DNA of 64,000 nucleotides from a bacterium (GTDB lineage: Bacteria > Actinomycetota > Acidimicrobiia > Acidimicrobiales > CATQHL01), in assembly GCA_028824415.1 (NCBI GenBank), contig JAPPDX010000134.1, positions 13,175 through 77,174 of the forward strand, in the 5' to 3' direction. The translations under genes were made by a program, and so were the position numbers. This document shows, piece after piece, positions 1,665 through 55,701 of the stretch (the stretch's first letter is position 1; every line of letters starts with the position of its first letter). Below the pieces are notes generated by a model. It saw nothing but the letters and a program-made list of their open reading frames with translations, did no database searches and was not told where the DNA came from.

Positions 1665-1668
<4 letters not shown>
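1108..1668 (+). CDS. Flavodoxin-like NAD(P)H dehydrogenase (quinone) family
   Basis: VVLCHPVPESF, LLNLYAEEF, LVLVYPTWWSGLPAMLAGWL; GTGA overlap with upstream gene. Confidence 0.85.
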
Positions 1669-4411
<2,743 letters not shown>

Positions 4412-4415
<4 letters not shown>

Positions 4416-5761
4416 TGGGACGATCCCGGAAGGAACCAGGCCTGGCCGTCAAGGTACGCCTGGGGTACCTGCACTGCGCCCCGCATGATCTCCCTCGCCG
4501 TGCGATCCATGGTGAGGCCCGCCACCCGCCACGTACCGGACAAGCAGTCCGCGGTCACGTTCAGGGCGAGCACCCCGGCGGGATGCCCGAGGCGGACCTC
4601 CCGCGACGGCGTTGGCGCCCCGGCCGCTGCGCGAGTGGTCCGGGATGATCCGGCGGCAACCTCCGCCACGACGCTGCCGTCCATGGCGGTCGCGGCCGCG
4701 CAGGCCATCGCACCGGTCATCGCCAGGGTCCGGTGAGTGCGGCCCATCGAGATCAGGCGCACGACCAGGTCCACGTCATCCGCAGGCACATCGGTGTCGC
4801 TCGTGGTCCGGTAGGCCGCCGGGGAGCCCACCACCGCCACCTTCGGCACCGTCCGGTGCCGGCGGGCGGCTTCGGTTGGCGATTCGGCCATGCCGATGCG
4901 CACCGCTGCTTCGCAGCGAATCCACTCGAGGCGCTCCTGTACGGCGGCATCGGCGTCGAGTGCCGTTGGAAGGGCGGTGGCGGCCGCGGGTGCCCCCAGA
5001 GCGTCGGCCGCCACGAACACGGCGGGATTGCCGACATCGATGATCGACACCGGGACGGCGCCGCATCCCGGCACGTCGACACTCTCGCGGACCAGCCCGG
5101 TAGGCAGTGCACCTCGCCCGATCGAGCCGTCCGGCTCGAGGTATTCGAGGGTCAGCCGTGCCCCGGTGCCGGGCACCCCTCCGATGGCGAACGCGCCCGA
5201 CGGGTCGTACCTGCCCGCGCGTAACGGCACCCGGGTGCGGAAGCGCTGGCCGGTATTGAGGCTCAGCACCTCGACATCCACCGCAGCGCGAGTCTCCGTG
5301 GGGCCGGGACCGGGATCCCGTCCCCGGATCGAGTCCGGGACGGGATCCCGGATCGGGGTCCGGGACATGCCTTCGCCGGGTTGACGGGAGGTGGCGTCTC
5401 CGAGCACGCCGATGGCAACGAGGCCCTCGTTGACGGCGAACGGGGCGATGGCGGCCGATATGTTCCCGCAGTTGCCGGCGAAGTCCACACTCGGCTCGGC
5501 CACCTCCACCTGTGCGAAGCGGAACGCCACATCGGCTCCGCTGCCCGCCGGGGCAGGGCCCACGATGGCGGCCTTGCTGAGCGAGGAGATCCCGCCGCCG
5601 AGACCGTCGATCTGGCGCCCGTCGGGGTCGGGACTGCCCAGCGCCGCCAGGATGATCGCCTCGACCTGCCATGGCTCGTAGGTGGCCAGATCCTCTGCCC
5701 GGAACAGAACGGCGCGGCTCGTGCCTCCCCGCCAGAACGACGCGGGGACGGGCCGGTCCAC
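4412..5761 (-). CDS. prpF: PrpF-family isomerase (methylaconitate/aconitate isomerase-like)
   Basis: RGGTSR, RQIDGLGGG, NCGN, IDVGNP, MGRTHR motifs; GTG start at 5761 just after the upstream stop. Confidence 0.9.
5301..5385 (-). repeat. Degenerate REP-like palindromic element in frame inside prpF
   Basis: Minus strand GTCAACCCGGCGAAGGCATGTCCCGGACCCCGATCCGGGATCCCGTCCCGGACTCGATCCGGGG resembles the copies at 34891 and 55604; near-perfect hairpin at 5312-5349. Confidence 0.65.
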
Positions 5762-5763
5762 GC

Positions 5764-6894
5764 TCAGCCCGCCGGGTACGGGCGCGGCGGCGACCCCTCG
5801 TACTGAGCGCGGGGCCTGATCAGGCGGTTGTTGGCGTACTGCTCGAGAACGTGCGCCGTCCATCCCGCCACCCGGCTGCAGACGATGAAACTCGTGAACA
5901 TGCTGAGTGGGAAGCCGAGGTGATACAGCACCAGCGCCGAGTAGTAGTCCACGTTGGCGTTGAGCCGCTTGCGCGCGTGCAACTCCGACTCCAGCGCGCT
6001 GGCCACGGCGTGCCAGTGCGGCTCACCCGCCTCGTCGCCGAGTTCGGAGGCGAGGCGGTCCATGGCGATCGCCCGCGGGTCGCGGGTCCGGTACACACGG
6101 TGGCCGAATCCCGGGACCTTGCGCCTCGCCGCCAGCGCCGCCTCCACGAACGGTGTCACCCCGTCGGGTTCGCCGATCTCGGAGAAGACCGCCATGGCGT
6201 CGTCCACGGCACCCCCGTGCAGCGCTCCCTTGACGGCCCCGATGCCCGACACCATCGCCGAGTAATAGTCCGAGAGCGTCCCCACGGTCGTGCGGGCTGC
6301 GAAGGTTGAGGCGTTCAACTCGTGCTCGGCGTACGTGTTGAGGAGGGCATTCAGGGCACCGGCTTCGTTCTCCGACGGCCGCTGTCCCGTGAGCATCCAG
6401 CAGAAGTTCGCGGCGTGGTCGAGGCTTGAATCGGGCGCGATCGGCTCCTTGCCCTGCAGGTAACGCGACATGGCGGCAACCATCGTCGGCAGGAGTCCCA
6501 CCAGCCTTGCGGCCTTGGCCACCACGGCCTCCCGCGAGATGTCGTCGGCGGTCGGATCCTCGGCGCCCACCAGCGACACGGTCGTGCGCAGCACCGCCAT
6601 CGGGTTCGCGCTCTCGATGGGCGCGGCCGCCAGGAGCGCCGCCACGGAGTCGCTCAGGTCACGGTGAGACGCCACCTCGGCGGCGAACGCCGAACTCTCG
6701 GTTCGGTCCGGCCAATCGCCGTGCCACAGCAGCCAGGTGACGTCACAGAACGAGGCATCGGTCACGAAGTCGCGTATGTCGTAACCCCTGTAGGTCAGGA
6801 CGCCGCCGGGACCGTCGATGGAGCAGACCGCGGAGTAGCAGGCCAGCACGCCTTCGAGACCGGAGGTGACCTGCGGTGGGCTGTCCTCACTCAT
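5764..6894 (-). CDS. Citrate / 2-methylcitrate synthase family
   Basis: SGLEGV, LTYRGY, HELNASTF, GALHGGA, PGFGHRVY, NVDYY; 376 aa from MSEDS. Confidence 0.92.
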   Translation of the reverse strand: MSEDSPPQVTSGLEGVLACYSAVCSIDGPGGVLTYRGYDIRDFVTDASFCDVTWLLWHGDWPDRTESSAFAAEVASHRDLSDSVAALLAAAPIESANPMAVLRTTVSLVGAEDPTADDISREAVVAKAARLVGLLPTMVAAMSRYLQGKEPIAPDSSLDHAANFCWMLTGQRPSENEAGALNALLNTYAEHELNASTFAARTTVGTLSDYYSAMVSGIGAVKGALHGGAVDDAMAVFSEIGEPDGVTPFVEAALAARRKVPGFGHRVYRTRDPRAIAMDRLASELGDEAGEPHWHAVASALESELHARKRLNANVDYYSALVLYHLGFPLSMFTSFIVCSRVAGWTAHVLEQYANNRLIRPRAQYEGSPPRPYPAG

Positions 6895-6943
6895 CGGTGA
6901 CCTCCTGTGGTCGGCCGGCTCGGAACCTACGGCCTCGCCGTAC

Positions 6944-8458
6944 TCAGCCCAGCTTGAACGGGTCGCGTGTGGCACCGGACATCTCCACCCACACGGCCTT
7001 GGTGTGCAGGAACTCGCGCAGGCCCTCCAGCCCGTTCTCACGGCCGTGACCGCTCATCTTGTATCCGCCGAACGGAACGTCGTAGTTGACGGTCCGGTAG
7101 GCGTTGACCCAGACGGTGCCGGCCTGCAGCCGCGGGACCATCCGGTGCACCCGCTGCACATCGCGGGTCCAGACGCCCGCCGCCAGGCCGAACGGCGAGT
7201 CGTTGGCGATGCTCAGCGCCTCGGCCTCACCGTCGAACGGGATGACCGACAGCACCGGCCCGAAGATCTCCTCGCGGGCGATCCGCATGGAGTTGTCGAC
7301 ACCGACGAAGACAGTGGGTTCCACGAACAGACCGTCGCCGAAGCGTTCGGGGCGGCGCCCCCCCGTGGCCAGGTCCGCACCCTCGGCGGTGCCGACGTCG
7401 ATGTAACCCATGACCTTGTCCCACTGGGCGGCGAAGGCCAGAGGCCCCATCTCGGTGGCCATGTCCATCGGGTTCCCGAGAACGATCTCCCGGGCCCGGT
7501 CCACCACTCGTTCCACCAACTCCTCATGCACCGAGCGTTCGACGAGCAGGCGCGACCCGGCGATGCAGGTCTGCCCGCAGGCGGCGAAGATCCCCGCCAC
7601 GACGCCGTTCGCGGCAGCCTCGAGGTCGGCGTCGGCGAACACGATGTTCGGCGATTTGCCTCCCAGTTCCAGCGACACCCGGGCCAGATGCTCCGCGGCC
7701 GCCTTGGCGACGCGAATCCCGGTTGCGACCGACCCGGTGAATGACACCTTGTCGACGCCGGGATGCGACACCAGCGGTTCGCCCACCCCGGGACCGTCGC
7801 CGGTGACCACGTTGAACACCCCGTCGGGAACGCCCGCGGCGGCCACGATGTCGGCGAAGCGAAGCGCCGAGACGGAGGTGTGCTCCGAGGGTTTGAGGAC
7901 GAAGGTGCACCCCGCTGCCAGCGCCGGCGCCAGCTTGTACGCCAGGAGCATGAGCGGCGAGTTCCATGCCGTGATGGCACCGACGACGCCGACGGGCTCG
8001 AACAACTGGTAGACGAAGAAGTTGGTCTTGGCGGAGTCCAGGACCTCGCCGCCGATCTTGTCGGCGGCACCGGCGAAGTAGTCGTAGAACTCCGGCAGCA
8101 GCGCCGCCTGCCCCGCCATCTCGCGCAGCAGCTTGCCGTTGTCGCGCACCTCGATGACGGCCAATTCCTCGGCGTGCTCCTCGAGCAGCCGCGCCAGACG
8201 CCGCATGATCCTGGCTCGCTCCACACCCGCCAACCGCGGCCAGGGCCCCTCGTCGAAGGCGGCGCGCGCCGCGGCGACGGCGCGGTCCACGTCGGCGGCG
8301 CCGGCCTCGGGCACCTGCGCCCACGCCTGGCCGCTGTAGGGATCGATGGAGTCGAAGGTGCGCCCGGAGAGCGCCTCGACCCACTCACCGCCGATGAACA
8401 TGCGCGGCGGGCCGCTGGGAGATGGATCGGTGCCGGCCTTCGCCGCAGTCATGGTCAT
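6944..8458 (-). CDS. NAD-dependent aldehyde dehydrogenase
   Basis: ITAWNSP, LKPSE, FTGS, LELGGKSP, GQTCIAG, EEIFGP, PFGGYKMSG. Confidence 0.95.
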   Translation of the reverse strand: MTMTAAKAGTDPSPSGPPRMFIGGEWVEALSGRTFDSIDPYSGQAWAQVPEAGAADVDRAVAAARAAFDEGPWPRLAGVERARIMRRLARLLEEHAEELAVIEVRDNGKLLREMAGQAALLPEFYDYFAGAADKIGGEVLDSAKTNFFVYQLFEPVGVVGAITAWNSPLMLLAYKLAPALAAGCTFVLKPSEHTSVSALRFADIVAAAGVPDGVFNVVTGDGPGVGEPLVSHPGVDKVSFTGSVATGIRVAKAAAEHLARVSLELGGKSPNIVFADADLEAAANGVVAGIFAACGQTCIAGSRLLVERSVHEELVERVVDRAREIVLGNPMDMATEMGPLAFAAQWDKVMGYIDVGTAEGADLATGGRRPERFGDGLFVEPTVFVGVDNSMRIAREEIFGPVLSVIPFDGEAEALSIANDSPFGLAAGVWTRDVQRVHRMVPRLQAGTVWVNAYRTVNYDVPFGGYKMSGHGRENGLEGLREFLHTKAVWVEMSGATRDPFKLG

Positions 8459-13052: not shown

Positions 13053-14054
13053 TCAATCCTCCTCGGCGCCCCTCAGCAGCCTCGCCCCCGCACCCCTCAG
13101 CAGGGGAGTCAGGAAGCGGCCCGCCTCGCGCACGCCCTCCTCGTAGGTCTGGTAAGGGTCCTCGTTCTCGATGCTCACGTAACCGTCGTAGCCGGCGGCC
13201 GCCAGGGCGTCCACGAGCGCCCCCCAGAAGACGGCGTCGTGTGCTCGTCCGATCGTCCGGTAACGCCAGGCCCGCGCCGAAGGGTCATCGAACGGCCGCT
13301 GGTCCAGGACACCGGCGAGAGCCAGTTCCTCGGGCACCATCTCGGTGTCCTTGAGCTGCACGTGATGGACCGCCTCGCCGAGGACCTCCACGACCCGGAC
13401 CGGGTCCATCTGCTGCCAGAACAGATGGCTGGGATCGACGTTGGCGCCGATCATGGGCCCGACCGCCTCCCGCATGCGCAGCAGCGTGGGCACGTTGTAC
13501 ACGAGGTGGATCGGATGGAGTTCGAAGGCGATGCGGCGCACACCGCAGCGCTCGGCCAGATCCGCCATCTCCGACCACAAGGCGATCCCCTCAGACCACT
13601 GGCGTTCCAACAGTGCCACGCTGTCCTCGGGCCACGGATAGAAGACCCAATTGACGGTGGATGAGCCGTCCCCGTCGCCGGTCGTGCCCGACATCGTCAC
13701 GATTTTTTCGACGCCAAGGAGTTCGGCCAGCCGGAACGTGTCCTCGATGAGCCGGCGGTGCTCGGGCCCCCGCAGCGGGTGCAAGGGCATTCCGGCGCAG
13801 TTGAGTGCGGAGATCTCCAGGCCTCGGCTGGCGAACGCCTCGGAGAACATCGCCCGGCTGCGGTCGCTCTCGAGCAGGTGGCGAACACCCGAAGGCTGCC
13901 CGGCCTGGGTGACCTCGATCCCCCTCGCCCCGATCTCCGCCGCGATGTCGAGGCGAGCCTCGAACTCGGCCCGGGTGGAGACGGGGCTCATCCAGGCCGG
14001 GCCGGCGTGCTCGGGCTTGGTCTCATCCGGCCGGCCGCTCGTGGCGGTGAACAT
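13053..14054 (-). CDS. Sugar phosphate isomerase/epimerase (xylose-isomerase-like TIM barrel, IolH-like)
   Basis: SALNCAGMPLHP, AFELHP, GANVDPSHLFWQ, HVQLKD, VSIENED; start uncertain (14054 or 13991). Confidence 0.85.
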   Translation of the reverse strand: MFTATSGRPDETKPEHAGPAWMSPVSTRAEFEARLDIAAEIGARGIEVTQAGQPSGVRHLLESDRSRAMFSEAFASRGLEISALNCAGMPLHPLRGPEHRRLIEDTFRLAELLGVEKIVTMSGTTGDGDGSSTVNWVFYPWPEDSVALLERQWSEGIALWSEMADLAERCGVRRIAFELHPIHLVYNVPTLLRMREAVGPMIGANVDPSHLFWQQMDPVRVVEVLGEAVHHVQLKDTEMVPEELALAGVLDQRPFDDPSARAWRYRTIGRAHDAVFWGALVDALAAAGYDGYVSIENEDPYQTYEEGVREAGRFLTPLLRGAGARLLRGAEED

Positions 14055-19325: not shown

Positions 19326-19351
19326 TGGATTCCGGCCTACGCCGGAATGAC
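19326..19351 (-). repeat. REP-like palindrome, short form
   Basis: Minus strand GTCATTCCGGCGTAGGCCGGAATCCA between convergent genes; 1 mismatch to copy at 40279. Confidence 0.8.
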
Positions 19352-19370
19352 GCAGAGGGGACCCGCAGCA

Positions 19371-23365: not shown

Positions 23366-25330
23366 TCAGTTACTGAGCCAGACGTCCTCGAGGTCCCACC
23401 AGCCGTTGGGCACGACCCGGAATCCCTCGACGTGGTCGGCCACCGCGTGCACGGTGGGCAGGAAGAACAGCGTCACCCAGGGCGCCTCCTCCATGGCGAT
23501 CCGCTGCACCTCCGGCCAGAGTTCGGCCCGGATCACCTCGTCGGTCGTGAAGGCGGCCTCCTCGGTGAAGCGTTCGAGTTCGTCCGGGATCTCCCAGCCG
23601 GTGAAGAAGCCGGCGAGGATGTTGCTCGGATCCGTGTCGTAGAACAGCAGCGCCACCTCGTCGGGCACGACCACGTCGGAGGTGAACTTCGGCAGCGGCA
23701 CGCCCGACTCGTACTCCATCGTGAAGAAGCGGTCGCCGAACAGCGTGCCGGTGTCGACCTCCTCGATGGACAGGTTCACGCCGATCTGCGCCCAGTCCGC
23801 CTGGAGAATGGTCCCGAGCTGCTCGTGGGCCGTCGAGCCCGACGGGTAGATGTAGGCGAGGTCGAAGCCGTCGGGCATCGACGACGCCGCCATGAGCTCC
23901 TTTGCCCGCTCGATGTCGTAGAAGTACGCCGGCAGGGTGTCGTAGTCGGAGTGGTACAGCGCCTTGGGGATCATGCTGTTGGCGATCTCGCCGACGCCCC
24001 CGTACACCGCCTCGTTGATGGCCGCCTTGTTGGTGGCGTAGTTCAACGCCTGGCGCACGCCGATCTCGCCGAGCGGCGGGACGGTGTGATTCAGGAACAC
24101 GCCCTCATAGCGGACGATGTCGGCGACGTGGATGCTGAAGCCCTCGCTGAGGGCCAGGTCGGGGATCTGCGTCCACGGCACGCCCTCGACAAGGTCGGCA
24201 TCGCCGCCCTGGATGCGCAGGATGCGGGCGTTGTCGTCGGGGATGTAGTCGAACCGGATCTCGTCGAGATACGGCTTGCCCTCCTCCCAGTAGTACTCGT
24301 TGCGCTCGAGGGTGATGTGCGAGCCGGCCACCCATTCCTTCACCTTGAACGGGCCGGTGCCTAGGGGGTTCATCCAGTGGTCGTCGCCCTCGGCCAGCAC
24401 GGCGGCCTTGTTGATGATCGATGCGGGGAACACCGAGATGTTCTCGAGGAACGCACCGACCGGGCGGTCCAGGTTCACCTGCACGGTCTGGTCATCGATG
24501 ATGTCCACGCTCTCGACCCCGACGCCGAGGCTCGGGATGTTCACGCTGATCGTCGGGTCCGCGAAACGCTCCAGTGAGAACTGCACGTCCTCGGCCGTGA
24601 CCGGCTCGCCGTTGGAGAACCTGGCGTTGTCACGGATGTGGAACGTCCAGGTCATGCCGTCGGGACTGGAACTCCACTCGTCGGCGATCCCCGGGCCCAC
24701 GTTCGGGAGAGTGTCGGGGTCGGCTTCCACGAGAGTGTTGTAGATCTGCACCCGCACGAAGATGGACCCGTTGTCGGCCACCCCCGCCGGGTCGAGGTTC
24801 TGCGTCTCGAAGAACCGGGCGAAGGTGAGCGACCCACCGCGCTGCGGGCCGCCCGCAGGCGCGGCGGCCTCTGCGGCTGCCGCTTCCGCCTCGGCACGCG
24901 CCACATCGGCTTCTGCCTGCGCGGCGGCGGCCTCGGCCTGCGCGGCGGCGGCCTCCGAGAGCGCCTCGTCCGCGGCGGCTTGCGCGGCGGCGAGGGCGGC
25001 TTCGGCGGCAGCCATGGCCTCCACGTTGCCCTCGGCGGTGGCCTGTGCCAGTGCAGCAGCGGCGGCTGCTGCGTCGGCGGCGGCCAGGGCCGCCGCGGCG
25101 TCCGCCGCCGCACTCTGGACCGCTGCCCCGGTGGCCCGAGCTTCGGCCATGGCGTCCGCCGCATCCGCGGATGCGCTGCTTGCCTCCGCCATTGCGGCAT
25201 CAGCGGATGCTGCCGCCGCGTCGGCGGCCTCCGAAGTGGAGTCATCGGCCGCGCACGAGGCGGCGATGAGCATCGTCACGGCACCGAGCACGATCAACCG
25301 CCTCCAAGAGCGGCCGTGTCGCGAATTCAT
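23366..25330 (-). CDS. Peptide ABC substrate-binding lipoprotein (SBP family 5) with N-terminal Ala-rich stalk
   Basis: Lipobox IAASC; ~135 aa Ala-rich region, then RGGSLTF..NLDP, WTFHIR, GTGPFK. Confidence 0.92.
   Translation of the reverse strand: MNSRHGRSWRRLIVLGAVTMLIAASCAADDSTSEAADAAAASADAAMAEASSASADAADAMAEARATGAAVQSAAADAAAALAAADAAAAAAALAQATAEGNVEAMAAAEAALAAAQAAADEALSEAAAAQAEAAAAQAEADVARAEAEAAAAEAAAPAGGPQRGGSLTFARFFETQNLDPAGVADNGSIFVRVQIYNTLVEADPDTLPNVGPGIADEWSSSPDGMTWTFHIRDNARFSNGEPVTAEDVQFSLERFADPTISVNIPSLGVGVESVDIIDDQTVQVNLDRPVGAFLENISVFPASIINKAAVLAEGDDHWMNPLGTGPFKVKEWVAGSHITLERNEYYWEEGKPYLDEIRFDYIPDDNARILRIQGGDADLVEGVPWTQIPDLALSEGFSIHVADIVRYEGVFLNHTVPPLGEIGVRQALNYATNKAAINEAVYGGVGEIANSMIPKALYHSDYDTLPAYFYDIERAKELMAASSMPDGFDLAYIYPSGSTAHEQLGTILQADWAQIGVNLSIEEVDTGTLFGDRFFTMEYESGVPLPKFTSDVVVPDEVALLFYDTDPSNILAGFFTGWEIPDELERFTEEAAFTTDEVIRAELWPEVQRIAMEEAPWVTLFFLPTVHAVADHVEGFRVVPNGWWDLEDVWLSN
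24933..25051 (-). repeat. Left arm of 119-bp inverted repeat (stalk coding sequence)
   Basis: Reverse complement matches 25900-26018 with 6 mismatches by manual alignment; encodes LAQATAEGNVEAMAAAEAALAAAQAAADEALSEAAAAQAE. Confidence 0.9.
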
Positions 25331-25587
25331 AGTGATCTCCTTCCGCCAACGCCATAGGCGATGCGGAGGAGCGCCTCCCCCCGTCGGCGCCGGCGATCAG
25401 CACTGTAGTGCAACGCCCTTTTCACTGCTCATGGGTAACCGCCGGGCTCGCCCGGGGCGGAGGTGACCATTTCCCAGGCGGCGTGACACCGGATACTGTG
25501 CGCGGCCAATCCCCCTGATGCTGCATCGCGTGTCGGCTCCCCGGCGGCTCTCCCGGCGTCGGGTCAGATACCAGCATCGGAGGACCT

Positions 25588-27366
25588 ATGAGGTACTTGA
25601 AGAAGAGCGGTGCTCTCGCGTCACTGCTCGCACTAACGCTCTTGGCAGCGGCGTGCGCGGCCGATGACGCCGCGTCGGAGGCCGCCGACGCGGCGTCCGA
25701 CGCTGCCGACGCGGCTCTGGCGGAGGCGAGAGGTGCATCAGCCGACGCCGCCGACGCCATGGCCGAGGCCCAGGCAACCGCTGCCGCTGCCCAGAGTGCG
25801 GCGGCGGACGCCGCCACCGGGATCGCCGATGCCGCAGCCGCGGATGCGGCCGCTGCGGCGGCACTCGCCGCGGCGGAGGCGGCGCAGGCGGCAGCCGACC
25901 TGGCGCAGGCCACCGCCGAGGGCAACGTGGAGGCCATGGCCTCCGCCGAAGCCGCCCTCGCCGCCGCGCAAGCCGCCGCGGACGAGGCGCTGTCGGAGGC
26001 CGCAGCCGCCCAGGCCGAAGCTGACGAAGCACGAGATGCAGCCGCCGCGGCCCAGGCAGAGGCCGAAGCGGCTCAGGCAGAGGCCGACCAGGCGCGGGCA
26101 GAAGCCGAGGCGGCGCGCGAGGAGGCCGCAGCCGCCCAGGCCGAGGCCGCAGCCGCGGCCGGTCCGGCAGCGGGCTCTATCGAGTTGGACTTCCTCGTGT
26201 TCGAGACCCCGAACCTGCCGGCGGAGTTCTGGGACGACGCCATCGCCCGCACGGTGGCCGATTTCCCGCAGTTCAAGATCAACAAGATCGTGGCACCCGA
26301 CCTCAACATCGGCGACTTCCTCAAGCAGCTGGCAGCCACCGACCAGCTCCCCGACGTCATGATGAGCAACTTCTCCACGGCGGAGTTCATCGCCGAGGGT
26401 CTGCTCCTGCCGTTCGAGCCGGAGGACCTGGAGCGATTCATCGACCCGGTCGGCCTCGGATACACCGACGGCAAGCAGTACGCGCTGCCGATGCTGACGG
26501 TCTACGAGTCAGGCGTCTTCTACAACAAGGACATGTTCGAGGCGGCGGGCATCACCGCCGAGCCGGAGACTTGGGACGAGTTCATCAATGCGGCTCTGGC
26601 CATCGCCGCATCGGGTGAGACGCCGTTCGTCATCGGCGGCGCCGGCGCTGACGCTTGGGCCGCGGGCTGGCCGATCATGAACCTGGCCTCCCTCAACGTG
26701 ACCGGCGCGGACCCGACGTTCAACCAGAAGCTGCGCACCGGTGAGGCCAGTTTCACCGACCCGATCTTCGTGGACGCACTGCGGCCGTACGAGCAGATGG
26801 TGGCCGCAGGATGGCTGACAGGTGAGGAGCTGAACCTCGGCTACGCCGACCTGCAGCAGACGTTCCTCGACGGCGCCGCGGCGATGTACCCGATGGGCAG
26901 CTTCTTCGCCGGTGCGGTGCCGATGGACCATCCGTTCGAGATCGGCATCTTCCCGATGCCCACCCTCGACGGCACCAAGCGCCTCGCCACCTACACGTCG
27001 GGCGGACCGGCCATCTCGGCACGCACCCCCGACCCGGAGGCGGCGCGGCTGTTCTCGGTGGAGTTCGCCACGAACGTCGAGACGAACCTCGACGATCTGA
27101 TCCGCGACGCGCACATCGCCAACAACAAGCTGTTCGTGCTTCCCAGCGACGTGGAACTGCACCCGCTGATCACCGAGGTCATCGAGATCCTGGCCGATCA
27201 GTCGGCCAGGCAGGTCGCCTTCTACACCTTCGAGGTCGGCGACGACGCCCTCGTGGCGGGTATGCAGAACGAATTGTGGATCCAGGCGCAGGAGATGCTG
27301 GCCGGCAGGTCGGCGGAGGAGGCCGCACAGGCCCTCCAGGACGCCTGGAACGACCTCTCCGGCTAG
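25588..27366 (+). CDS. Carbohydrate ABC substrate-binding lipoprotein (SBP family 1) with N-terminal Ala-rich stalk
   Basis: Lipobox LAAAC; ~165 aa Ala-rich region, then LPDV, YALP, FYNKDMFEAAGI, PETWDEF. Confidence 0.92.
   Translation: MRYLKKSGALASLLALTLLAAACAADDAASEAADAASDAADAALAEARGASADAADAMAEAQATAAAAQSAAADAATGIADAAAADAAAAAALAAAEAAQAAADLAQATAEGNVEAMASAEAALAAAQAAADEALSEAAAAQAEADEARDAAAAAQAEAEAAQAEADQARAEAEAAREEAAAAQAEAAAAAGPAAGSIELDFLVFETPNLPAEFWDDAIARTVADFPQFKINKIVAPDLNIGDFLKQLAATDQLPDVMMSNFSTAEFIAEGLLLPFEPEDLERFIDPVGLGYTDGKQYALPMLTVYESGVFYNKDMFEAAGITAEPETWDEFINAALAIAASGETPFVIGGAGADAWAAGWPIMNLASLNVTGADPTFNQKLRTGEASFTDPIFVDALRPYEQMVAAGWLTGEELNLGYADLQQTFLDGAAAMYPMGSFFAGAVPMDHPFEIGIFPMPTLDGTKRLATYTSGGPAISARTPDPEAARLFSVEFATNVETNLDDLIRDAHIANNKLFVLPSDVELHPLITEVIEILADQSARQVAFYTFEVGDDALVAGMQNELWIQAQEMLAGRSAEEAAQALQDAWNDLSG
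25900..26018 (+). repeat. Right arm of 119-bp inverted repeat (stalk coding sequence)
   Basis: See left arm; same peptide, same reading frame. Confidence 0.9.
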
Positions 27367-34848: not shown

Positions 34849-34890
34849 TGGCCACCGGGGCGGGTTACCAGGGTTTCGGGCTACTGCCCC

Positions 34891-34940
34891 GTCGTTCCGG
34901 CGAAGAGCCTGCGCCAGACTCGATCTGGGGCCGGAACCCA
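34891..34940 (+). repeat. REP-like palindrome, long form
   Basis: GTCGTTCCGGCGAAG-AGCCTGCGCCAGACTCGATCTGGG-GCCGGAACCCA: short-form arms with an inner hairpin. Confidence 0.75.
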
Positions 34941-34971
34941 GGCATCGGCAACGAACCGGGCGGTTGAGGAC

Positions 34972-40278: not shown

Positions 40279-40304
40279 TGGATTCCGGCCTCCGCCGGAA
40301 TGAC
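40279..40304 (-). repeat. REP-like palindrome, short form
   Basis: Minus strand GTCATTCCGGCGGAGGCCGGAATCCA, intergenic. Confidence 0.8.
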
Positions 40305-40345
40305 GGGTCGGGGGATCTGCAGTCTCGCCCGGCGGTCCGTGGACG

Positions 40346-49747: not shown

Positions 49748-50725
49748 TCAGCGCCGGGCGGCCTCGAGGCGGGCGCGCATCCGCTCGTGCGCCTCGGGCG
49801 AGCCGTCGTGCCAGGTGCCCATCCAGGCGTCGATGGGGATCACCTGCAGGCCGTAGTTGCACTCGAAGTACTTGTGGTGGAGGTCGTGGTAGTAGGTGCC
49901 CGCGGGCATCGTGCGCCCGTAGCCGATCTCGAAGCGGTCGAAGCCGCAGTGTCCCCGCGCCGGGTCCATGGCGGTGAAAAGGTTCGTGAGGATGACGACG
50001 AACGGGCTCACCGGGATCACCATGAAGAACAGCACCGTGGAGAAGTAGAGCAGGTGCTCGATGGGATGCATGGAGAGTCCCGACCATGGTCCGGTGTTGA
50101 CGTTCTTGTGGTGCAGGTAGTGAGCCCACCGATAGAGCGGTTTGGTGTGCAGCAGCCGGTGAGTCACATAGAACCAGGCCGTGACCAGGAAGAACGGAAC
50201 GACGGTCATCGCGAGCAGGTAGACCACCCAAGCCGGCCCGTCGCCCCAGTCCACCCGCGGGATGTGCTCGTTGGCGTAGGCCCACAGCAGCAGTGACTCG
50301 TAGGCGGTCCAGAAGAAGGCGCCGCTGCTGAGCGCCCAGAACATGTTGTCCCGGGTCTGGCTGCGCCAGAGGAAGCGGCGGCTCTTGTTGTTCAGCCACC
50401 GGGAGTCGTACTTGTAGCTCTTGCCCTGCGCCCGCCGGACGTAGAGCCACAGGTGCAGGCCTCCCGCAGAGACCAGCAGCAGCACGACGTTGCGCAGATA
50501 GATCTCGGCGATCCAGCCCACCGCGAACCGCTCCATGCGCTCCATGGCGGGGGTGAAGACGTTCCACACCAGGGCCGCCAGACCGGCGTAGATGAAGCCG
50601 TAGGGCCACATCGTCATCCAGACGAGTTCCCAGATGGTGCGCAGGGCTTTCCCCGGCCCGCCCCGCAGCGTGGGCGGCCGCATCGGGATGGCTTCTGCCG
50701 GCTCGTATCCCGCGATCCGCTCCAT
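49748..50725 (-). CDS. Sterol desaturase / fatty acid hydroxylase family
   Basis: His boxes HRLLH, HYLHH, HDLHH; NYG. Confidence 0.88.
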   Translation of the reverse strand: MERIAGYEPAEAIPMRPPTLRGGPGKALRTIWELVWMTMWPYGFIYAGLAALVWNVFTPAMERMERFAVGWIAEIYLRNVVLLLVSAGGLHLWLYVRRAQGKSYKYDSRWLNNKSRRFLWRSQTRDNMFWALSSGAFFWTAYESLLLWAYANEHIPRVDWGDGPAWVVYLLAMTVVPFFLVTAWFYVTHRLLHTKPLYRWAHYLHHKNVNTGPWSGLSMHPIEHLLYFSTVLFFMVIPVSPFVVILTNLFTAMDPARGHCGFDRFEIGYGRTMPAGTYYHDLHHKYFECNYGLQVIPIDAWMGTWHDGSPEAHERMRARLEAARR

Positions 50726-52772: not shown

Positions 52773-53756
52773 TCAGCCGGAGGTGTGGCCGGCGGCCTCT
52801 CGGCGGGTTCGCATGCGCTCGTGGGCCTCGGGGGAGCCGTCGTGCCAGGTGCCGACCCAGGCGTCGACGGGGACCACCGGCGTGCCGTAGTTGCACTCGA
52901 AGTACTTGTGGTGCAGGTCGTGGAAGTAATCGCCGGCGGGCAGGGTGCGGTCACCGACGGTGACGATGCGGTCGAAGTTGGAGTGGCCGAGCGACGGGGC
53001 CAGGCCGGTGAAGATCTGCGTGACGATGATGACAAATGGGTTGGCGGGGATGAACAGGAAGAACACCGGCGTGGAGAAGTAGAGCAGGTGCTCGATCGGG
53101 TGCATCGACAGGCCCGACCACGGCCCGGTGTTGACGTTCTTGTGGTGGAGGTAGTGGGCCCAGCGGTACATGGGCCTGGTGTGCAGGAACCGGTGGGTCA
53201 CGTAGAAGTAGCCGGCCACCAGCCAAAACGAGAAGACCGTCATCACCACCAAGTAGACGACCCAGCCTGCCCCGTCGCCCCAGCGGACGTGGGGAATGTA
53301 GTCGTTGGCGTAGCACCAGTAGAGCAGCGCCTCCCAGAAGGTCCAGAAGACGGGCGCGCTGGCGAGGCTCCAGAAGGCGTTGTCCCAAGCCTGATTACGC
53401 CACATGAAGCGGCGGGCGGTGGTGCTGAGCCAGCGTTCGTCGTACTTGAACCGCTTGTCCTGCGACCGCCGCACGTAAAGCCAGAAGTGGATGGCGCTCA
53501 CCCACACGGCCACCATCACGAGGTTGCGCACATAGATCTCGGCCACCCAGCCGATCTCGAAGCGCTGCATGCGGCTCAGCGCGGGCGTGAAGTAGTTCCA
53601 GACCACCACCGACAGCCCGATGTAGAACAGCCCGTACGGCCACAGCATCAGCTTGGTGAGCTTGGTGATGTTCTTCAGCGACTCCGACGGCCTTGTCAGG
53701 AACCTGGGCGGCTCCATCGGCATGCCGTCCGGCACGTACCCCTGAGTCCTCGTCAT
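52773..53756 (-). CDS. Sterol desaturase / fatty acid hydroxylase family (paralogue)
   Basis: HRFLH, HYLHH, HDLHH; close paralogue of 49748-50725. Confidence 0.88.
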   Translation of the reverse strand: MTRTQGYVPDGMPMEPPRFLTRPSESLKNITKLTKLMLWPYGLFYIGLSVVVWNYFTPALSRMQRFEIGWVAEIYVRNLVMVAVWVSAIHFWLYVRRSQDKRFKYDERWLSTTARRFMWRNQAWDNAFWSLASAPVFWTFWEALLYWCYANDYIPHVRWGDGAGWVVYLVVMTVFSFWLVAGYFYVTHRFLHTRPMYRWAHYLHHKNVNTGPWSGLSMHPIEHLLYFSTPVFFLFIPANPFVIIVTQIFTGLAPSLGHSNFDRIVTVGDRTLPAGDYFHDLHHKYFECNYGTPVVPVDAWVGTWHDGSPEAHERMRTRREAAGHTSG

Positions 53757-55523: not shown

Positions 55524-55603
55524 GACTGCTCCCGTCGTGGACCGCTCCTCTGCGGCGACCTGCCGTCACGCTACCTGTGGGCGCCGACGGGCTGCCGGGT
55601 TGC

Positions 55604-55652
55604 TGGATTCCTGCCCCGGGATGAGTCCGGGCAGGCTCGTCGCCGGAACGAC
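55604..55652 (-). repeat. REP-like palindrome, long form
   Basis: Minus strand GTCGTTCCGGCGACGAGCCTGCCCGGACTCATCCCGGGGCAGGAATCCA, intergenic. Confidence 0.75.
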
Positions 55653-55701
55653 GTGCGAGCGAGCGAGTCGGAGGGCGGAGTGGGTGCAGCGTCCTCGGGG
55701 T

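Follow-up and report, generated by a model that had tools for sequence, protein, structure and literature searches.

What is a low-complexity segment doing inside prpF, a gene of the 2-methylaconitate isomerase family? The gene lies at 4412..5761 on the minus strand of the window, by which we mean the whole stretch of 64,000 nucleotides analysed here (positions 13,175 to 77,174 of contig JAPPDX010000134.1, assembly GCA_028824415.1, from a bacterium of the Acidimicrobiales). Judged by its sequence, the segment is a copy of a genus-wide repetitive extragenic palindromic (REP) element of the CGTC-1 family, also called Ssn-related motif (SRM). The copy, degenerate and of a two-module form, occupies 77 nt in frame within prpF (5310..5386, minus strand). 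We consider the insert most likely to be a tolerated passenger and not a domesticated loop: in our reading, to which we give a probability of about 0.8, a copy of the repeat was inserted into a loop of PrpF, is tolerated there, and has since evolved as a repeat rather than as protein.

The peptide concerned, RQPGEGMSRTPIRDPVPDSIRGRDPGPGP, comprises PrpF residues 126-154 (window 5300-5386, minus strand). It confirms the low-complexity peptide reported by a first-pass annotation of the sequence, whose boundaries of 5301-5385 are off by only a few bases. All parts of the copy are read on the minus strand. It opens with the CGTC tag, the left arm and the start of the loop (CGTCAACCCGGCGAAG, 5371..5386); the canonical form is CGTCATCCCGGCGAAG, and the prpF copy has CAA for CAT, giving the peptide R-Q instead of R-H. 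Two inner hairpin modules of 24 nt follow, both of which had been noticed by the first-pass annotation. Module 1 (GCATGTCCCGGACCCCGATCCGGG, 5347..5370, 8 codons) recurs in three intergenic copies (C10:24899, C74, C117) and, in genome G006, within the acyl-CoA synthetase gene. Module 2 (ATCCCGTCCCGGACTCGATCCGGG, 5323..5346) is the module of the 'long' form, whose canonical sequence is AGCCTGCCCCGGACTCGATCCGGG. The right arm and tail (GACGGGATCCCGG, 5310..5322) close the copy. Module 2 and the mutated right arm make up a near-perfect palindrome of 38 nt (GGGATCCCGTCCCGGA-CTCGA-TCCGGGGACGGGATCCC, 5312..5349), which dominates the predicted fold of the copy; the minus strand folds at -58.1 kcal/mol (z=-3.05 versus shuffles).

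Comparison with the whole genome ties the insert to other copies. BLAST matched it to an intergenic copy at C10:24905 (93% over 58 nt, E=1.8e-17) and to C74:8682 (89% over 66 nt). A hidden Markov model built solely from the three other two-hairpin copies, with the prpF copy excluded, recovered the latter as the fourth-best match in the genome, a significant score (E=3.9e-16, 60.5 bits); the next match stood at E=2e-8. The two intergenic copies in the window with which the segment had been aligned by eye, at 34891 and 55604, proved to be true members of the family. The first is a long-form copy with one inner module (34890..34941, plus strand, nhmmer E=2e-14) and the second a degenerate long-form copy (55603..55653, minus strand, nhmmer E=3.4e-9). 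Two canonical short-form copies, CGTCATTCCGGCGTAGGCCGGAATCCA at 19326..19352 and CGTCATTCCGGCGGAGGCCGGAATCCA at 40279..40305, are likewise intergenic and on the minus strand, with 0 matches expected in shuffles. Together the data support the earlier proposal of a non-autonomous palindromic repeat lying in frame within an intact prpF.

The genome, a fragmented metagenome-assembled genome (MAG) of 138 contigs (3.19 Mb, 69.5% G+C), holds the repeat at about 102 loci. Copies were located by targeted BLAST, nhmmer and regular expressions, and their forms were found by reading the BLAST matches and by a search of the genome for the head motif. The basic unit, CGTC-ATTCCGGC-GNAG-GCCGGAAT-CCAG, is an oriented hairpin of 28 nt. 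The short form (CGTCATTCCGGCGNAGGCCGGAATCCAG, 28 nt) has 82 copies, and its conservation falls sharply at both ends; the long form, with a 24-nt hairpin module (AGCCTGCCCCGGACTCGATCCGGG) within the loop, has about 25, and the two-module form has four (C10, C74, C117 and prpF). Among 94 hairpins the CGTC head is present in 86, the loop reads GNAG in 76 and the tail is CCAG, CCAT or CCAC in 88. The third pair of the stem covaries (79 T-A, 14 C-G and 1 mismatch). At many loci, tandem units made of about 9 nt of local flank and CGTCATTCCGGC stand on the 5' side, upstream of the complete repeat, for example at C23:2954-3040, C87:5258-5344, C132:19138-19224 and C98:3736-3909. The period of these left-arm units is 17-24 nt, most commonly 21, even in intergenic positions where the reading frame cannot matter. 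A different arrangement occurs at C18:24550-24721, where a 74-nt unit is present three times head-to-tail, each with a complete short-form repeat and an identical flank. The element escaped a generic repeat finder run on the window, its copies being short, gapped and diverged, and a search of Rfam gave only chance matches to microRNA hairpins, far under threshold.

The gene carrying the insert is an intact open reading frame (ORF) of 449 aa with a GTG start. Its product matches PF04303 (E=4e-88) and PDB entries 2pvz/2h9f (E about 1e-62), and an AlphaFold2 model built with an alignment of 40 orthologues has the PrpF fold (template modelling score 0.79 to 2pvz). The catalytic Cys98, in a GNCGN motif at 5468-5470, is invariant in this alignment. 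It is followed by helix 102-111, at the far end of which lies an enlarged loop (residues 116-161; 5279..5416, minus strand), bounded on its other side by strand 159-167. The loop measures 46 residues here, 10 in the nearest empty orthologues and 7 in distant ones; the insert thus adds about 36 residues relative to the nearest empty orthologues, against the ~25-35 aa anticipated by the first-pass annotation. That annotation had also expected orthologues to lack the segment. This held for all distant orthologues (57-70% identity) and for many close ones, with 7-10 residues at the position, and failed for orthologues of the same genus that share the segment at the same site; the insertion is therefore not private to this genome. 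Residues 119-155 have a predicted local distance difference test (pLDDT) score below 50 and no secondary structure in the model, and the loop is predicted to be disordered. Outside the loop, the median pairwise ratio of nonsynonymous to synonymous substitution (dN/dS) among nine filled prpF genes is 0.245, indicating that these genes are under purifying selection and that the decorated enzyme is kept by selection.

We read the prpF site at the DNA level in 17 representative species and found it filled in nine and empty in eight. Filled sites hold short, long or two-module forms, the last in this genome only; the short form (CGTCATCCCGGCGAAGGCCGGGATCCAG) is read as RHPGEGRDP and the long form as RHPGEEPAPDSIRGRDP. 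The repeats are preceded by 0-13 (usually 1-13) units of 21 nt with the left arm, read as PRHPGDT-like heptads, and in one filled genome a second prpF contig (L042) carries two complete long-form copies in tandem within the loop. Loop length ranges from 29 to 97 residues, an excess of about 20 to about 90 that depends on the species. The insert is missing from many close relatives, and even near-identical PrpF proteins differ in fill state. On a protein tree with the loop masked, well-supported branches force at least six changes of fill state. In a close pair of filled and empty sites, 19/60 and 9/24 positions differ beside the site compared with 0-6/60 elsewhere, a pattern that patch replacement by recombination fits better than clean excision does. 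In contrast to these changes of length and state, the core does not vary: in five species whose prpF genes differ by 0.2-0.6 synonymous substitutions per synonymous site (dS), all 27 nt of the repeat agree. The other 9-codon windows of prpF, 383 in number, each vary among the same five species, with a mean of 8.8 variable sites per window. The prpF repeat is thus conserved at the level of nucleic acid and not as a peptide.

Two other genes carry internal copies in the same orientation and frame as prpF, both outside the window. The copy in tsaE (C48:4636-4688) splits the TsaE Pfam domain; one species has the short form at this site, three have the long form, this genome among them, and in ten the site is empty. 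The copy in an acyl-CoA synthetase gene (C132:35521-35568) lies just before the TSGTT motif. Four species have the short form there, four the long form and two the two-module form, while several lack the repeat; one species has 15-nt DRHSG repeats. The two-module peptide in another species' acyl-CoA synthetase, DRHSGESMSRTPIREPAPDSIRGRNP, nearly equals the prpF peptide described here. Independent point mutation therefore cannot account for the forms of the repeat, which must have arisen by copying from locus to locus or through some shared process.

Such internal copies are exceptional. Normally the repeat follows a stop codon by 15-50 nt and points the same way as the gene. Using our own rough gene caller, which is based on G+C content by codon position (GC3), we placed 59 of the about 102 loci between same-direction genes, 19 between convergent and 4 between divergent ones. 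At the same-direction loci, 50 copies are co-oriented with the flanking genes and 9 are opposed (p=5e-8); the co-oriented ones follow the upstream stop codon at a median distance of 44 nt. A first screen based on ORFs had counted 15 copies 'inside genes'; by codon-position G+C, most of these lie in 5' leaders under over-long ORFs. Among about 100 loci, only those in prpF, tsaE and acyl-CoA synthetase are internal and in frame. Two further copies near 3' ends seem to supply the last 40-60 codons of a purL-like ORF of 1090 aa (C3:16968-17020) and of an APH-family ORF (C42:7432-7487). One of them is in reverse orientation and one in another frame, and they may represent repeat-derived C-terminal tails or mis-extended ORFs.

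Exact copies of the repeat number 69 in this genome and 8-155 in 15 of the 17 other genomes of the genus; one of the remaining two has 2 exact copies and the other none. The relatives compared are Acidimicrobiia/Acidimicrobiales MAGs with isolate names such as SB0668_bin_6, APA_bin_18 and COS4_bin_33, which we take to be sponge metagenome bins. No exact copy was present in 43 genomes from 41 other genera in this family and order, and a reversed-pattern control for the count gave 0. Within this sampling the repeat is confined to the genus.

This architecture corresponds to a published family. CGTC-tagged REPs are defined by an unpaired CGTC head, a CCA tail, a post-gene position and the lack of a dedicated transposase (PMC3733652). 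Family 1 has a stem of 8 bp, the first two pairs of which are A-T, and a loop of 4 nt (PMC3733652), and was equated with Neisseria dRS3 and with Rickettsia RPE-6 (Di Nocera et al. 2013, PMC3733652). The genus repeat displays all features of CGTC-1: tag, stem, loop, tail, high copy number, 3'-end position and the absence of a REP-associated tyrosine transposase (RAYT). The Y1 transposase/RAYT domain (PF01797) was found in none of the 18 genus genomes, with positive controls detected, which rules out RAYT as the mobiliser of the repeat.

The same kind of hairpin has been described from the side of a nuclease. The Neisseria NTS motif, CGTCATTCCCGCGMAVGCGGGAATCYRG, and related SRMs are bound as single-stranded DNA by SsnA, a GIY-YIG nuclease of about 95 aa (Chenal et al. 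2025, PMC11893778). SsnA cuts the forward single strand a few bases upstream of the hairpin, and its gene typically has the motif on both sides (PMC11893778). The search pattern for SRMs given there, HGTCWYN(0-2)YYVSBRHN(0-5)WNVSBRGN(0-2)RNCYNB (PMC11893778), is fully matched by our canonical unit in both stem variants, and the genome contains 93 matches compared with 20 in a reversed control. The prpF copy has kept CGTC, while its 4-nt loop is replaced by the two 24-nt modules (a 48-nt loop) and its stem has 2 mismatches; with this long loop and mismatched arms it does not match the pattern, and the copy in this genome is therefore probably a decaying relic. One small GIY-YIG protein is encoded in the genome, by a single-domain gene of 99 aa outside the window (C62:1143-1439; PF01541, E=4.7e-14). 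From its size, domain, context and the published pattern we assign it as ssnA-like, that is, as a putative Ssn.

In the history that we propose, a single old insertion, in some ancestor belonging to the genus, would have placed one copy in the stretch of prpF that encodes the loop. In the orientation and frame that it has, the copy reads R-H-P/S-G-E...G-R-D/N-P, a hydrophilic peptide free of stop codons, with abundant Gly, Pro and charged residues. PrpF would have stayed functional and tolerated the insert, since it lies in a flexible loop at the distal end of the catalytic-Cys helix. The copy would probably keep the exact nucleotides of its family by gene conversion with roughly 100 other copies, which is the simplest reading of their joint evolution. 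It would have switched among short, long and two-module forms, as at intergenic loci, and the 21-nt arrays of 'upstream flank + left arm' would have grown by slippage, with only multiples of three surviving in genes. In many lineages the copy would have been lost, or exchanged by homologous recombination, and in this genome it would now stand as a two-module form with decaying outer arms. We infer that the peptide is neutral, and any action of the nuclease at the prpF copy is likewise our conjecture.

Several points weigh against this history. The same peptide frame in all three genes might hint at selection on the peptide (three out of three gives p about 0.1), an argument tempered by the orientation bias that intergenic copies likewise show. 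During much of the radiation of the genus the insert has been retained, and it might confer a modest benefit. The AlphaFold2 model has a moderate mean pLDDT of 70, and low confidence is no proof of disorder. Of the 18 genus genomes 14 lack the ssnA-like gene, among them complete chromosomes with 38-106 copies; these genomes keep the repeats, so the nuclease is not needed for their persistence. Finally, invariance of the repeat would also be explained by recent re-insertion at a hot spot or by direct selection on the hairpin.

Re-insertion survives best among the alternatives, and we regard it as unlikely. Here the site would have been hit repeatedly and independently, its shared position reflecting target preference and not descent. 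Such a history would suit the highly homoplastic pattern of filled and empty sites (at least six changes), the presence of different structural forms at one site, the tandem of two complete long-form copies in the L042 loop, and a repeat that looks younger than the gene around it. However, the loop sequence 3' of the repeat (for example VSSGTPERSAV, LSSGAADRS, APGxxAD) is common to members of a clade and missing from empty alleles, which is what descent from one insertion predicts. In their flanks, filled and empty alleles also differ far more than a clean insertion would give, and no common target sequence was seen at the three genes.

A function of the nucleic acid in cis, with the intragenic hairpin being kept as DNA or RNA, appears improbable. 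It might serve as an Ssn site that modulates recombination or transformation of the prp operon, or form a structure in the mRNA with effects on decay or translation. The invariant nucleotides and covarying stem pairs are what such a function would predict, and divergence is raised beside the site, as for dRS3-adjacent genes of Neisseria (PMC11893778). Furthermore, the coding strand corresponds to the cleavable strand of PMC11893778, and an ssnA-like gene is present in this genome. Yet the copy in this very genome has fallen off the SRM pattern through its 48-nt loop and mismatched arms, most members of the genus lack ssnA and many species lack the insert, whereas intergenic copies already provide the usual post-gene hairpins.

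The first-pass annotation had concluded that the repeat was domesticated as a surface loop, in which case the repeat peptide would have gained a role in PrpF (interaction, regulation or localisation) and be kept by selection on the protein. This claim found no support, and we think it very improbable. Its case is that the insert is in frame and kept in 9 of 17 representative species, that one reading frame is used in three different enzymes, and that the host gene is under purifying selection. But the segment is predicted to be disordered (pLDDT below 50 over 119-155), near-identical orthologues do without it, its length varies from 29 to 97 residues, and its nucleotides are invariant where synonymous change would be free. 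The occurrence of one sequence in three unrelated enzymes itself speaks against a specific role, an argument also made in PMC3733652. There is next to no chance that the insert is an assembly or binning error or marks a dead prpF: this is a fragmented MAG of 138 contigs and repeats can cause misassembly, but the frame is open, the catalytic motifs are intact, dN/dS is about 0.25, and equivalent inserts occur in independent assemblies, including complete chromosomes.

Returning to the passenger reading, in-frame insertions of this kind have precedents, as does the repeat family, and prpF is a new example, not a new phenomenon. Intragenic copies of CGTC-REPs encoding 20-80 residues have been listed, and in-frame insertions of REPs and of Rickettsia palindromic elements (RPEs) reviewed (PMC3733652). 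The likeness to RPEs drawn by the first-pass annotation turns out to be closer than it knew, the element falling within CGTC-1, a family that includes RPE-6 (PMC3733652). As with Rickettsia RPEs and RPE-6, a short palindromic repeat with a CGTC-tagged hairpin architecture lies in frame in housekeeping genes of a symbiont, leaves the host ORF intact and adds a peptide missing from orthologues in other genera. Unlike them, it occurs in a different phylum (Actinomycetota, class Acidimicrobiia, presumably in sponges), has the stem TTCCGGC instead of the Rickettsia stem, and has only three internal in-frame cases among about 100 loci. Its orthologous sites are empty, short, long or two-module across the genus, and there are arrays of 21-nt half-repeats.

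From the Neisseria NTS (CGTCATTCCCGCGMAVGCGGGAATCYRG) the genus unit differs by essentially one covarying stem pair. Like NTS/dRS3 it is an oriented repeat with a C directly after the palindrome, and intragenic copies are rare in both (2% in N. meningitidis, about 3% here). The SRM-ssnA-SRM arrangement of the Neisseria system is also found here, and the enrichment of SRM-rich genomes among symbionts (PMC11893778) is matched by the occurrence of this repeat in a symbiont. In contrast to the SRM system, 14 of 18 genus genomes have repeats without ssnA, and nested modules of 24 nt fall outside the SRM definition. The main text of PMC11893778 mentions neither Actinobacteria nor intragenic in-frame copies. 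GTAG-type REPs, which in Enterobacteria and Pseudomonas form bacterial interspersed mosaic elements (BIMEs) and are associated with a RAYT (TnpA-REP), resemble the repeat in being high-copy extragenic hairpins after genes, with occasional intragenic copies and an associated nuclease gene flanked by inverted copies. Here, however, the tag is CGTC and the associated enzyme a GIY-YIG protein, with PF01797 in none of the 18 genomes.

The three intragenic sites can be traced as orthologues across about 18 species and, unlike intergenic copies, can be aligned with certainty. That the same copy is found empty, short, long, two-module or expanded by units, while its core is identical in nucleotides, is direct evidence for concerted evolution of SRM/CGTC repeats and for their remodelling in place. 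The data extend the CGTC-1/SRM family to Acidimicrobiia of sponge-associated lineages, which fits the enrichment of SRMs among symbionts. For annotation, they explain the unusual RHPGE/PRHPGDT stretches of low complexity met within otherwise conserved enzymes of these MAGs.

The ssnA-like gene is itself flanked by inverted copies of the repeat, one upstream on the plus strand (C62:1017) and one downstream on the minus strand (2612-2640). The whole forms a cassette of about 1.9 kb (C62:830-2730) with the order repeat(+), ssnA-like gene, variable cargo, repeat(-) (loci L118-L121 and L138-L155). The cargo is an ORF of 345 aa here and differs between two carriers. Four of the 18 genus genomes have the cassette, all at one locus; at least seven others have an empty locus lacking any repeat, against which the cassette forms a clean indel. 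The four loci are orthologous, so the presence of the repeat beside the gene in four genomes is not independent evidence. We had considered the GIY-YIG gene with its inverted repeats as a new 'REPtron' for CGTC repeats; the literature shows it to be the published Ssn/SRM system. Searches of NCBIfam and of PDB sequences with the small nuclease gave nothing useful.

Homologues of the ssnA-like protein with 70-77% identity occur across phyla, and three of the four genes examined in other phyla stand between inverted copies of the repeat. The stem of the pair is that of the genus repeat in a Sedimenticola genome and an Acidobacteria MAG, and a different but matching one in a Rhodanobacteraceae genome. 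In Microbulbifer the repeat is clear only upstream and the downstream hairpin is degenerate. In this Microbulbifer chromosome (CP116898.1, L156) the ssnA homologue and its repeat lie between an imuB-like (IMS) gene and dnaE2, a setting that recalls the frequent location of REPs in or near genes for error-prone polymerases (PMC3733652).

One may speculate that intragenic SRMs are generators of in-frame length variation and of recombination breakpoints, Ssn cutting single-stranded DNA a few bases upstream of the hairpin and slipped repair then duplicating the upstream flank with the left arm in ~21-nt steps. The same period is the commonest at intergenic loci, where frame cannot matter. We hold this proposal to be a long shot. 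If true, the pair of nuclease and hairpin would drive heptad arrays, switching of forms and mosaic divergence near the site in housekeeping genes of sponge symbionts.

The surroundings of prpF are those of a methylcitrate-cycle operon, in the order prpC-prpF-acnD. A citrate-synthase-family gene resembling prpC (5764..7041, minus strand; PF00285, E=1e-116) lies directly upstream, and an aconitase-family gene resembling acnD (1665..4415, minus strand; PF00330, E=2e-147) directly downstream, in the same operon. PrpF has a second variable loop of low confidence (residues about 372-386; alignment columns about 440-480), which coincides with a local spike of divergence and in orthologue P0034 contains an insert of about 30 residues. 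Elsewhere in the window, 24864-26157 is a low-complexity coding region rich in Ala, Glu and Gln, built from GCN-rich repeats with a period of 21 nt. The likeness of GCN-rich repeats to their own reverse complement probably explains why the region also scores as long inverted repeats (247-nt arms, 81% complementarity). Two stretches of 300 nt with 80% identity, 3 kb apart (49757-50056 and 52791-53090), are probably paralogous genes.

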